Positions 10,417 to 12,506 of a DNA stretch of 43,956 nucleotides are shown here, piece after piece. Position numbers and translations under genes: made by a program. Each line of letters opens with the position of its first letter. The stretch's first letter is position 1. The DNA is from Planctomycetaceae bacterium (lineage in GTDB: Bacteria; Planctomycetota; UBA8742; UBA2392; JABWBM01). The notes under the pieces were generated by a model. The model had not been told where the DNA came from and searched no databases. It worked only from the letters and a program-made list of their open reading frames with translations. Location: assembly GCA_013360495.1 (NCBI GenBank), contig JABWBM010000029.1, positions 1 to 43,956 on the forward strand, read 5' to 3'.

Positions 10417-11331
10417 ATGACTCATCGTCACTGAATCGTCCGGGGGGCGCTGCTCCTCATCGCCGTGGCGGGTCTCGCCGCGAATCTCTCCGCCCATGAA
10501 ACGCTCTTCGGGCGCGGGCCGCGCACCATGTGGAAGGGCGGCTTCGAACTGGAAATGGAGACCATGTTCGAGCAATCGAAGCGTTTCTACGAGGGCGACA
10601 ACACCGTCGCCAACCCTGACAACATGCGCATGTATGAAGCCACGTGGTCACCAGGGATAACCTACGGTGTGACGCGAGACTTCGCCGTCAAAGCGGAATT
10701 TCCCTTCATGTACGGCGTGATGACGGGCGAGTCCATGGGCCGCCACTCTCTCCTGAGCATCGGCAACTGGGAGGTGGGCGCCGCCTATCGCATCGATCCT
10801 TTGATCTTCGGTGGACCGCTGGTGTTCGAGGGAGGGAGCTGCCAGCTTCGTCTCTTTGGAAAGGCCGAACTGCCGACGGCTCCGGAACGGGAGAACGGCA
10901 TCAGCTTCGGCGAGGAGACCTTCACCTTCCTCGGTGGCGGCGCCATCGCCATTGGCACGGCGCGCCATTACTTCTGGGGCGAGGTGTCGGGCGACATCTC
11001 AACGGAAAAGGACGGCACGGGCATGGGTCCCGCGCTGCAGTCCCACGCCGCCTATGCCTGGCGCATCCAGGAGCTCAAGGACTACCGCGAGCTTGACATC
11101 ATCCTGCTCTTTGAACTGGACGTAGAGGCGCGCTCGAAGGGAACGATGAACGGCGATGACGACCCGGACAGCGGGCATTTCACCACGTACCTCGGGAGCG
11201 GTGTTCAGGTCAACTTCACCAACCTGATCTCGCTCAAGACCGGCTACAACGTTCCGCTCTACCGGCGCTACAACGGCGTGCAGTTGGCGGATGATGGCAC
11301 GTTCATGCTGATGTTCAGTTATTTGTTCTAG
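10417..11331 (+). CDS. Outer-membrane beta-barrel 'transporter' (MetA-pathway/PF13557-like), Met-rich, with an in-frame TGA at codon 6
   Basis: AAGGA RBS then ATG 10417: MTHRH-TGA-IVRGALLLIAVAGLAANLSA|HE... gives a signal peptide only if TGA 10432-10434 is read through. Body has GITYGVT, K.ELPT, DPDSG...YLGSGVQ, VPLYRRYNGVQL and a terminal Phe (YLF). ORF track starts at GTG 10465. Confidence 0.75.
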
Positions 11332-11332
11332 G

Positions 11333-11405
11333 CGTAGCGTCACGCGCCCTCGCGTGACGAACCAATCAAAAGATACAACGTCACGCGAGGGCGCGTGACG
11401 CTACG
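11333..11405. repeat. REPIN-like element, family B
   Basis: cgtagcgtcacgcgccctcgcgtgacg ... cgtcacgcgagggcgcgtgacgctacg is a perfect inverted pair. Confidence 0.8.
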
Positions 11406-11423
11406 AAGAAAGACGCGGTCACT

Positions 11424-11813
11424 ATGCAACGCTTTCAACATACGATTCTGATGGCCATGTTCATCGCCGGCTTCGCCGCGTGCATGAATATCTCCGTCGC
11501 GAACATCGATCCGCCCGCGGATCACAAACCCGTTACGAACGTGCCCACCGATCGAGACGCGATATACAAACTCAAAGTTAAGGGCGTGGACTGAGGCGAG
11601 TGAGCGACGGGCCTGATACAGGCTTTTGAATCCCTGGATGGGGTTCGCGAAGTTCGAACGGATATCACCGAGGCGATGGTCTATCTCCGCACGGAACCGG
11701 GAACGGTGCTTGTGTGGGAGGACGTCGCGACAGCCGCCGTGTCCTACGGTTATGGTCTCGCGGCGCTGGAGCTGGCCGACATCCCGTGGGAAAAGCTCTC
11801 GGGCGGCGAGTGA
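11424..11813 (+). CDS. Lipoprotein with heavy-metal-associated (HMA, CopZ/MerP-like) domain carrying a UxxU motif; candidate double-selenocysteine protein
   Basis: Manual translation: MQRFQHTILMAMFIAGFAAC (lipobox) MNISVANIDPPADHKPVTNVPTDRDAIYKLKVKGVD-TGA-GE-TGA-ATGLIQAFESLDGVREVRTDITEAMVYLRTEPGTVLVWEDVATAAVSYGYGLAALELADIPWEKLSGGE*. The TGAs at 11592 and 11601 (codons 57 and 60) occupy both Cys positions of the HMA G[M/V]xCxxC motif. Absent from the ORF track. Confidence 0.85.
11611..11652 (+). promoter_or_regulatory. Two tandem bacterial SECIS-like stem-loops
   Basis: GCCT-GATAC-AGGC (11611-11623; loop 20 nt after the first TGA) and GAATCCC-TGGAT-GGGGTTC (11628-11646, extendable to 11623-11652; loop 31 nt after the second TGA). 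Each has G at loop position 1 or 2. Confidence 0.6.
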
Positions 11814-11876
11814 CGGGGATGAGGACAAGCATCCGCCCTCTGGCATTGCGGGCCGGACGAGCTATCATTTCACCCC

Positions 11877-12233
11877 ATGACCGACCGGGTGCTCAACCTC
11901 GTGATCTTTGCCGGCGTACTCTGCGTCGTAGCAGGCGGAGCTGCTGCCGTCGGTTCGCTTTTCGGCCCGGCGCGCCGTGGCAAGACCAAAGAATCGCCCT
12001 ACGAGTGCGGTTCCCCAATCCTGAACGAAACGCGCAAGAAGTTCGACGTGCGTTTCTTCATGCTGGCGATGATCTTCATCCTCTTCGACATCGAAACCGT
12101 ACTCTTGATCCCCTACGCCGTTCAGTACGAACGCTTCGGCGTGGCCGGCCTCGTAATCGCCGGCATCTTCTTCCTCGGCCTCGTGGAATCGCTCATCTAT
12201 GCCTGGAAGAAGGGCGCGCTGGACTGGAAATAG
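11877..12233 (+). CDS. nuoA: NADH-quinone oxidoreductase subunit A (stand-alone)
   Basis: K.SPYECG, FDVRFFMLAMIFILFDIE, YAWKKGALDW. Confidence 0.92.
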   Translation: MTDRVLNLVIFAGVLCVVAGGAAAVGSLFGPARRGKTKESPYECGSPILNETRKKFDVRFFMLAMIFILFDIETVLLIPYAVQYERFGVAGLVIAGIFFLGLVESLIYAWKKGALDWK

Positions 12234-12375
12234 CGCCTGAAGCGCTTCTCAGGATTACCTTCGGATTTACGTTGCTCTCGCGCGTTTGGCAGGGGCGTCT
12301 TCACTTCATCAATCTGCTGCAAATCATCTCCGGAAACGCTCTCATACCGGTTCAATGAAAGAAATCGGTTCTTGC

Positions 12376-12423
12376 CGTCATTCCCGCAAAGGCGCAATGC
12401 GATACGATTAGCGGCAGGAATCT
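12376..12423. repeat. REP family A, degenerate
   Basis: cgtcattcccgc...gcaggaatct. Confidence 0.55.
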
Positions 12424-12424
12424 T

Positions 12425-12506
12425 GTAGCGTCACGCGCCCTCGCGTGACGGACTATGGAAAATGTAGCTTGTAGAGAAGACGCCATGCGAGGGCGCATGG
12501 CGCTAC
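12425..12506. repeat. REPIN-like element, family B
   Basis: gtagcgtcacgcgccctcgcgtgacg ... cgccatgcgagggcgcatggcgctac. Confidence 0.75.

Follow-up and report, generated by a model that had tools for sequence, protein, structure and literature searches.

A conserved pair of hairpins after twin predicted selenocysteine codons in an HMA-like lipoprotein gene of uncultured Planctomycetota

The window analyzed here is a 43,956-nucleotide stretch (positions 1 to 43,956 of contig JABWBM010000029.1, assembly GCA_013360495.1) from a Planctomycetaceae bacterium. On its forward strand, at positions 11424-11813, lies a gene for an HMA-like lipoprotein that is predicted to be a selenoprotein. Under genetic code table 11 the open reading frame (ORF) is interrupted at two TGA codons. 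With TGA read as selenocysteine (Sec, U), the frame runs from an ATG at 11424 to a TGA stop at 11811-11813 and encodes 129 residues, including KVKGVD-U-GE-U-ATGLIQAFESLDGV. The first Sec codon of the U-G-E-U motif (UGA1, 11592-11594) aligns to the first Cys, and the second (UGA2, 11601-11603) to the second Cys, of the GMxCxxC motif of HMA domains. Two hairpins follow these codons. Comparison across orthologs indicates that they form a real, conserved two-hairpin element after twin Sec codons, which appears to be a variant of the theme of the bacterial selenocysteine insertion sequence (SECIS).

Hairpin 1 (11609-11625, forward strand) has seven base pairs, formed by arms 11609-11615 and 11619-11625, and an AUA triloop at 11616-11618. 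Its sequence is GGGCCUG-AUA-CAGGCUU, with two G.U pairs among the seven and a minimum free energy (MFE) of -8.2 kcal/mol, and the base of its stem is 14 nt after UGA1 and 5 nt after UGA2. Hairpin 2 (11628-11646, forward strand) also has seven base pairs, with arms 11628-11634 and 11640-11646 and a UGGAU loop at 11635-11639. Its sequence is GAAUCCC-UGGAU-GGGGUUC (MFE -10.7 kcal/mol), and in the window its loop starts 31 nt past UGA2 and 40 nt past UGA1. The first-pass annotation of this DNA had described two tandem SECIS-like hairpins, possibly one per UGA. Its second hairpin (GAATCCC-TGGAT-GGGGTTC) is the one we identify at 11628-11646. Its first (GCCT-GATAC-AGGC) does exist, but is the upper part, with the closing G-C pair left open, of the larger 7-bp structure. 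The loop distances that it gave, 20 nt after the first TGA and 31 nt after the second, are right under its own loop definitions. The window sequence alone proves nothing about the hairpins: an 85-nt stretch folds with an MFE of -27.4 kcal/mol and a z-score of -1.06, and 29 of 200 shuffles fold equally well. The evidence is comparative. Two weak microRNA matches in an Rfam scan of positions 10500-12500 are spurious.

A protein search of 41 related genomes identified orthologs in 17 sister-family genomes, plus one partial, all with two in-frame TGAs. A profile search of 401 genomes of the phylum returned 18 strong matches, again all with two TGAs, and added two genomes (19 in total, plus the partial); no ortholog outside this order, and none with Cys, was found in that search. 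Cys forms were also sought with a DNA pattern that accepts TGA, TGC or TGT at each of the two codons; it needs the flanking motif and so could miss divergent Cys forms. No Cys-form ortholog was identified by this pattern in 185,579 species genomes, where 21 of 34 loci are real orthologs, or on metagenome contigs, where 11 of 32 are real; every real ortholog is TGA/TGA. The other loci match by chance, in frames that are non-coding or unrelated. In the genome and metagenome searches the family is found solely in one order of uncultured Planctomycetota. We collapsed identical 75-nt stretches and dropped rows cut by contig ends, as well as two spurious TGA/TGA matches (L096 and L104), which gave 26 distinct ortholog rows. 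Both Sec codons are TGA in 26 of 26 rows, and the alignment is gap-free from 9 nt before UGA1 to 63 nt past it.

Covariation among homologs, which the first-pass annotation had named as a check on its hairpins, is present: both stems are kept, with compensatory changes, in the 26 distinct TGA-x-x-TGA rows. In hairpin 1 (alignment columns 27-33 with 37-43), 98.4% of cells are paired. Its pair 31-39 is GC in 21 rows, AU in three and CG in two, and pair 33-37 changes from CG to GC in the window. For hairpin 2 (columns 48-53 with 57-62) the share of paired cells is 88.5%; it has compensatory changes at columns 47-63, 49-61 and 53-57 (two-sided at the latter two) and is retained through a one-base register shift in three rows. 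None of 500 column shuffles reaches the observed covariation score, and slid partners pair at no more than 59%. The earlier suspicion that hairpin 1 is short and could be due to chance is not borne out, as it is rated the more stable and better conserved of the two. Also discarded is an extended form of hairpin 2 that would share C11623 with hairpin 1 and point to sequential folding; the pairs involved (42-69, 43-68 and 46-64) are kept in only 2, 5 and 2 of the 26 rows. A small helix predicted by RNAalifold around the UGAs (columns 8-10 with 17-19) was set aside as uninformative, its pairs being invariant or fixed by coding.

The hairpins could be by-products of protein sequence and GC-rich codon usage, and the composition of hairpin 1 lends this some appeal: its arms are Gly/Ala and Val/Asp codons that are mutual reverse complements. 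However, the amino acids themselves change in a compensatory way, from Val..Asp (GUC..GAC) to Ile..Asp (AUC..GAU), to Leu..Gln (CUG..CAG, the window) and to Leu..Glu (CUC..GAG). We also resampled synonymous codons 1000 times, with amino acids fixed and codons redrawn from the usage of one genome for all rows, which are related to one another. Full pairing of hairpin 1 is seen in 23 of 26 rows, where the null gives a mean of 2.2 and a maximum of 8; for hairpin 2, five or more of the six pairs are present in 23 of 26 rows (null mean 3.4, maximum 11). None of the 1000 resamples approaches the observed pairing, and this result and the covariation largely refute a by-product origin.

The third codon positions give a similar picture. 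Entropy is 0 at codons +5 (ACG, 26 of 26 rows), +6 (GGC), +13 and +14, and low at +10 and +16 (GGG in 23 of 26 rows, a codon that accounts for 15% of Gly codons in the genome), with values of 1.2-1.8 at other conserved four-fold sites. Within hairpin 1, the codons ACG, GGC and GCC are invariant in 26, 26 and 25 of the 26 rows. Synonymous constraint is limited to the two hairpins and the codons adjoining UGA1. Those codons (-3 to -1, positions 11583-11591) have near-fixed synonymous sites, with GGC and GAC each in 25 of 26 rows, and an influence of context on decoding or termination at UGA may be behind this. Conservation, covariation and resampling support selection at the RNA level on both hairpins in all TGA-TGA orthologs.

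A related doubt concerns the codons themselves: the UGAs might not encode Sec, being read instead as Cys by a tRNA-ReC-like tRNA or belonging to a broken gene. The genome (3.4 Mb in 256 contigs, 91.8% complete) encodes selA (558 bits) and selB (345 bits), both above cut-off. Neither selD above cut-off nor tRNA-Sec was found in this 91.8%-complete assembly, which is the point in favor of a non-Sec reading. Both are present in five of five near-complete relatives of the same order (tRNA-Sec with anticodon UCA at 69-73 bits; the selD gene itself carries one TGA), and we therefore attribute their absence to the incomplete assembly. The order to which the organism belongs has the Sec trait, and all orthologs keep an open frame through the two TGAs. 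TGA is the commonest stop, ending 908 of 2093 long ORFs of the genome, and thus there is no global TGA reassignment. We consider it very improbable that the hairpins are coding by-products or that the UGAs do not specify Sec.

The same genome has four more genes with two close in-frame TGAs, on contigs C256 (L143/L145), C39 (L163), C132 (L144/L170) and C151 (L018). The set comprises two thioredoxin-like proteins with UGPU, a Trx7/PDZ protein with UERU and a classical HMA protein carrying GMT-U-PAG-U. A scan for selenoprotein genes, based on codon scores and a six-frame contrast, gave three further genes with two close TGAs as well as candidate single-UGA selenoprotein genes, cut by standard ORF calling, on contigs C214, C133, C1, C32, C166, C34, C94, C139 and C152. 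By motif reading they include peroxiredoxins, TlpA/redoxin-like UxxC proteins, an AhpD-like CxxU protein and a MetE-like protein.

As in bacterial SECIS elements, of which that of Escherichia coli fdhF is the type example, the hairpins lie inside the coding sequence just 3' of UGA, and hairpin 2 has a small G[G/U] loop on a stem of 4-7 bp, 31-32 nt from UGA2. Unlike in those elements, two adjacent conserved hairpins, separated by a linker of 4-5 nt, follow two UGAs that are 9 nt apart. The bacterial SECIS model, as outlined in the source, allows loops of 3-9 nt and stems of 4-16 bp, sets a distance of 16-37 nt from the UGA and an MFE of -7.5 kcal/mol or lower, and calls for one G or more among the first two nucleotides of the loop, usually as G[G/U]N (PMC13188914). 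Sizes agree in 26 of 26 rows (hairpin 1, loop 3-5 nt and stem 6-7 bp; hairpin 2, loop 3-5 nt and stem 4-7 bp), and in all of them hairpin 1 keeps its place with respect to the UGAs to the nucleotide. The loop of hairpin 1 starts 20-21 nt past UGA1 and that of hairpin 2 31-32 nt past UGA2, both in range, whereas the crossed distances are outside it (hairpin 1 to UGA2, 11-12 nt; hairpin 2 to UGA1, 40-41 nt). The energy threshold is reached by hairpin 1 in 26 of 26 rows and by hairpin 2 in 14 (range -5.1 to -10.7 kcal/mol).

The loop of hairpin 2 carries the G in 26 of 26 rows (GUC, GGA, GGC, GGU, GUA, UGGAU or GGUC, following G[G/U]N). This G, at column 54 (position 11636 of the window), is the third position of a codon for R, Q or L. 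In single-UGA genes of the order, loops start with G and lie 19-30 nt after the UGA; the SelD hairpin, for example, is GGACCUG-GGA/GUC/GGU-CAGGUCC, 27 nt after its UGA. Hairpin 1 departs from bacterial SECIS elements in that its spacing to UGA1 is canonical and its loop G is not conserved, and neither hairpin alone fits the model for both UGAs. Geometry assigns hairpin 1 to UGA1 and hairpin 2 to UGA2; by loop identity, hairpin 2 alone is canonical.

HMA-type genes of the same genomes were compared by mean MFE in two intervals, upstream and downstream, set relative to the second Cys/Sec codon; the groups are small, related and partly paralogous. For the refuting condition named in the first-pass annotation, that the hairpins are equally present in Cys homologs, these paralogs served as the comparison. 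The means (upstream and downstream, in kcal/mol) are -12.3 and -8.3 for the target family (n=24, the rows of the 26 caught by the motif regular expression), -7.1 and -8.8 for classical HMA paralogs with two UGAs (Sec-Sec, n=20), -7.9 and -3.6 for UxxC forms (Sec-Cys, n=8) and -5.2 and -3.65 for CxxC forms (Cys-Cys, n=21). Among these HMA genes the downstream hairpin rises above baseline solely where the second codon is UGA, and the upstream hairpin is strongest where the first is UGA. Two UxxC genes (L068 and L069) have a single hairpin, GGGGGUC-CGUGA-GACCCUC, with its stem 14 nt past the UGA, as in hairpin 1. A UxxxC gene (L268) keeps both hairpins and adjoins a two-UGA tandem paralog (L259/L268).

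The unrelated Trx7/PDZ family was recovered by a genome-wide pattern scan as 58 distinct rows (loci L178-L253) from Planctomycetota, Poribacteria and other phyla; four loci of that range (L189, L190, L192 and L194) are left out of one listing of hairpin positions. Every row shares a main hairpin whose loop is 25 nt past the UGA of the second position (mean MFE -10.5 kcal/mol in UxxU and -9.7 kcal/mol in CxxU forms). An extra hairpin of -3 kcal/mol or lower, with its loop starting 16 nt after UGA1, is present in 18 of 21 UxxU against 8 of 37 CxxU rows (Mann-Whitney p 3.7e-6, uncorrected for relatedness). The loop of this extra hairpin is GCA or GCAA. A FastTree phylogeny was built from 54 of the 58 rows, leaving out four of less than 200 aa and masking the trait column; on it, the U/C state switches no fewer than eight times. 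In six independent pairs, the hairpin follows the UGA in a mean of 4.8, opposes it in 0.1 and shows no difference in 1.1.

An association of the upstream hairpin with UGA1, and of the downstream hairpin with UGA2, is therefore supported by sequence comparison in two unrelated protein families, comprising three gene families in all. Of the proposal that there is one hairpin per UGA, this association, seen in geometry, HMA genes and Trx7/PDZ, stands; what does not fit is that hairpin 1 is without the defining loop G in 15 of 26 rows, which would accord just as well with a helper role. One might instead suppose that hairpin 1, or both hairpins, are messenger RNA (mRNA) structures unrelated to Sec decoding, acting in stability, in translation speed for secretion or folding, or as a regulator site, with hairpin 2 alone or another feature directing both UGAs. 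The loop of hairpin 1, which is not SECIS-like in most orthologs, would be explained in this way, as would the upstream structure of some Cys-Cys HMA paralogs (mean -5.2 kcal/mol). We judge this explanation unlikely, because the upstream hairpin goes with the first UGA in two gene families that are not related, hairpin 1 is fixed in position to the nucleotide in 26 of 26 rows and the only synonymous sites under constraint are those of the hairpins and of the codons adjoining UGA1.

We tentatively favor a reading in which the two hairpins act as the joint Sec-insertion signal of this UxxU gene, each tied to one UGA. We infer that hairpin 2 would bind SelB as a canonical bacterial SECIS and serve UGA2. 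With UGA1 in the A site, hairpin 1 would be at the mRNA entrance, in the position of the sole SECIS-like hairpin of UxxC HMA relatives, and it would most likely be a second SelB docking hairpin, atypical in its loop, for UGA1. During the 9-nt advance of the ribosome to UGA2, hairpin 1 would be unwound and the signal would pass to a SelB complex waiting on hairpin 2. Given the known footprint of the ribosome, some or all of hairpin 1 should be open once UGA2 occupies the A site, since only 5 nt separate UGA2 from the base of this hairpin. This reading is preferred because hairpin 1 is canonical for UGA1 in position, such a hairpin suffices in UxxC relatives and hairpin 2 is out of range for UGA1.

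Several observations weigh against assigning a SECIS to each UGA. The loop of hairpin 1 has the G in 11 of 26 rows and lacks it in 15, the window (AUA) among them. Its loops are AUG in 11 rows, AUU in two, AUA in one and GUN in nine, with three pentaloops; Met/Ile codons dominate there though Val (GUN) is tolerated. In the two-UGA HMA paralogs the upstream loop has G in 13 of 19 and lacks it in 6 of 19 (e.g., AAAAA, AAGAA). The upstream baseline of Cys-Cys HMA genes is not zero (14 of 21 at -4 kcal/mol or lower), and the HMA groups are limited in size and independence, as noted above. For the Trx7/PDZ pairs the sign test is underpowered, with a median p of 0.06. The Rfam scan of 10500-12500 gave no match to a SECIS family at E<=10. 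In addition, three other UxxU genes of the same genome (on C256, C39 and C132) have one hairpin with a GGUC loop, 19-22 nt past UGA2 and hence 28-31 nt past UGA1, and no convincing second hairpin was found in them. One SECIS can thus apparently serve both UGAs if it is close.

In an alternative reading, hairpin 2 alone would bind SelB for both UGAs and hairpin 1 would be a collapsible spacer or pause element. Folded, hairpin 1 would take 17 nt from the path and bring hairpin 2 to effectively about 24 nt from UGA1 (40-41 nt in linear distance). With the ribosome at UGA2, hairpin 1 would melt, leaving hairpin 2 31-32 nt away, and its unwinding may slow the three translocations while SelB reloads on hairpin 2. 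The attraction of this alternative is that the loop of hairpin 1 is unconstrained beside the invariant loop G of hairpin 2, even though the stem of hairpin 1 is extremely constrained. The same contrast is seen in the Sec-Sec HMA paralogs, where the downstream loop, 31-32 nt past UGA2, has G in 18 of 18 as opposed to 13 of 19 upstream. The sole (upstream) hairpin of UxxC forms has a loop G in five of six, which suggests that the loop constraint relaxes once hairpin 2 exists. UxxU genes with a single hairpin 28-31 nt from UGA1 need no extra one, and the extra hairpins are seen in genes whose main loop would lie 34-44 nt from UGA1. For UXXU hydrogenases it was proposed in 2026 that one SECIS serves both UGAs, in the part of that report available (PMC13582414). 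Against it, we found no precedent for a SECIS that acts across an intervening stable hairpin, a hairpin at the position of hairpin 1 is sufficient alone in UxxC relatives, and hairpin 1 is exactly at the canonical SECIS position for UGA1. We regard this alternative as a serious possibility, and place a SECIS for each UGA slightly ahead of it.

A broader proposal can be extended from the preferred reading of one hairpin per UGA, though we offer it as a conjecture in which our confidence is limited. Bacteria might decode close UGAs by modular tandem SECIS elements, one hairpin per UGA, with SelB pre-loaded on each and the hairpins used in order as the ribosome unwinds the first. This would apply across unrelated families (HMA-like lipoproteins, classical HMA selenoproteins and Trx7/PDZ proteins) and several phyla, with a degenerate loop being acceptable in the upstream module.

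More than one SECIS for a message with several UGAs is a feature of vertebrate SELENOP mRNA, in which two SECIS elements in the 3'UTR divide the labor. The likeness is one of analogy, not homology: SELENOP is eukaryotic, and its 3'UTR elements act at a distance via SBP2 and eEFSec. In the literature searched, no description of tandem SECIS hairpins in bacteria was found, the matches being eukaryotic or archaeal among those listed. Closer to the present case are the UXXU hydrogenases, which also have two UGAs, with two codons between them, at a metal-binding CxxC site. As far as the available part of the report goes, one SECIS is common to the CXXU and UXXU forms and possibly serves both UGAs, additional factors may be involved, and an enrichment of tRNA-ReC is noted (PMC13582414). 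The element described here differs in its extra conserved hairpin between the UGAs and the SECIS, although the supplementary figures of the hydrogenase report might show one too.

The protein begins with a signal peptide (11424-11483, forward strand) that ends in FAAC, which we take to be a lipobox on the basis of its sequence. The aligned orthologs all carry a signal peptide as well, and the Cys at its end (C20, codon 11481-11483) is invariant in them. The window protein scores 20.3 bits against the Pfam HMA profile (PF00403), under the gathering score of 24.8, and 14 of 15 family members match the profile at E<=0.01. An AlphaFold model based on 15 family members has a beta-alpha-beta-beta-alpha-beta fold (predicted local distance difference test 82, predicted template modeling score 0.71), with U57 and U60 placed between a strand (46-53) and a helix (58-69). 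Foldseek matches include CopZ, MerP, Atx1 and ATPase metal-binding domains, with target-normalized template modeling scores of 0.75-0.82 for CopZ, MerP and Atx1. The position of U57 and U60 between strand 1 and helix 1, along with these matches, suggests that the two UGAs stand in for both metal-binding cysteines of an HMA domain.

UxxU selenoproteins are already known, including the two-Sec family NF041115 and Trx7/PDZ, according to the portion of the source available (PMC13188914). NF041115 (UxxU_metal_bind, 'metal-binding (seleno)protein') is similarly a small HMA-like protein with both metal-binding Cys replaced by Sec. It is matched weakly by 13 of 15 family members (best E 5e-5), and the window protein, at 20.6 bits, is far below the curated cut-off of 95. 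Also unlike NF041115, the window protein is a lipoprotein with a Pro/Glu-rich linker and, in the searches described above, was found in just one planctomycete order. The family, with the motif G-[MIV]-D-U-G-x-U-[AT]-T-G, is a previously uncatalogued planctomycete HMA-like two-Sec metal-binding lipoprotein.

The gene is flanked upstream by a gene with a weak match to outer-membrane beta-barrel proteins and downstream by nuoA. In the sister family the ortholog is clustered with further HMA genes (Cys-Cys, Sec-Cys and Sec-Sec), sometimes in tandem (loci L020-L046 and L254-L278), and these clusters form a natural series of Cys/Sec replacements; the window gene stands alone between the beta-barrel-like gene and nuoA. 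Between the stop of the upstream gene and the start of the selenoprotein gene is a long near-perfect palindrome (11332-11402). The 3.4-Mb assembly contains 57 copies of its 16-base core, counting both strands, of which three are on the contig of the window, and the palindrome looks like a dispersed palindromic element resembling repetitive extragenic palindromes. A weak Rfam match of this palindrome to mir-1893 is spurious.

Standard annotation truncates the protein at codon 57, and selenoprotein gene finders that expect one SECIS per UGA at 16-37 nt would miss or mis-score UGA1. How two UGAs three codons apart are decoded is an acknowledged open point in the part of the hydrogenase report available (PMC13582414). 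The planctomycete family offers a natural test case, with two fixed UGAs, two covarying hairpins at invariant positions, one of which has a SelB-type loop and one of which does not, and relatives that have one UGA and just the matching hairpin.

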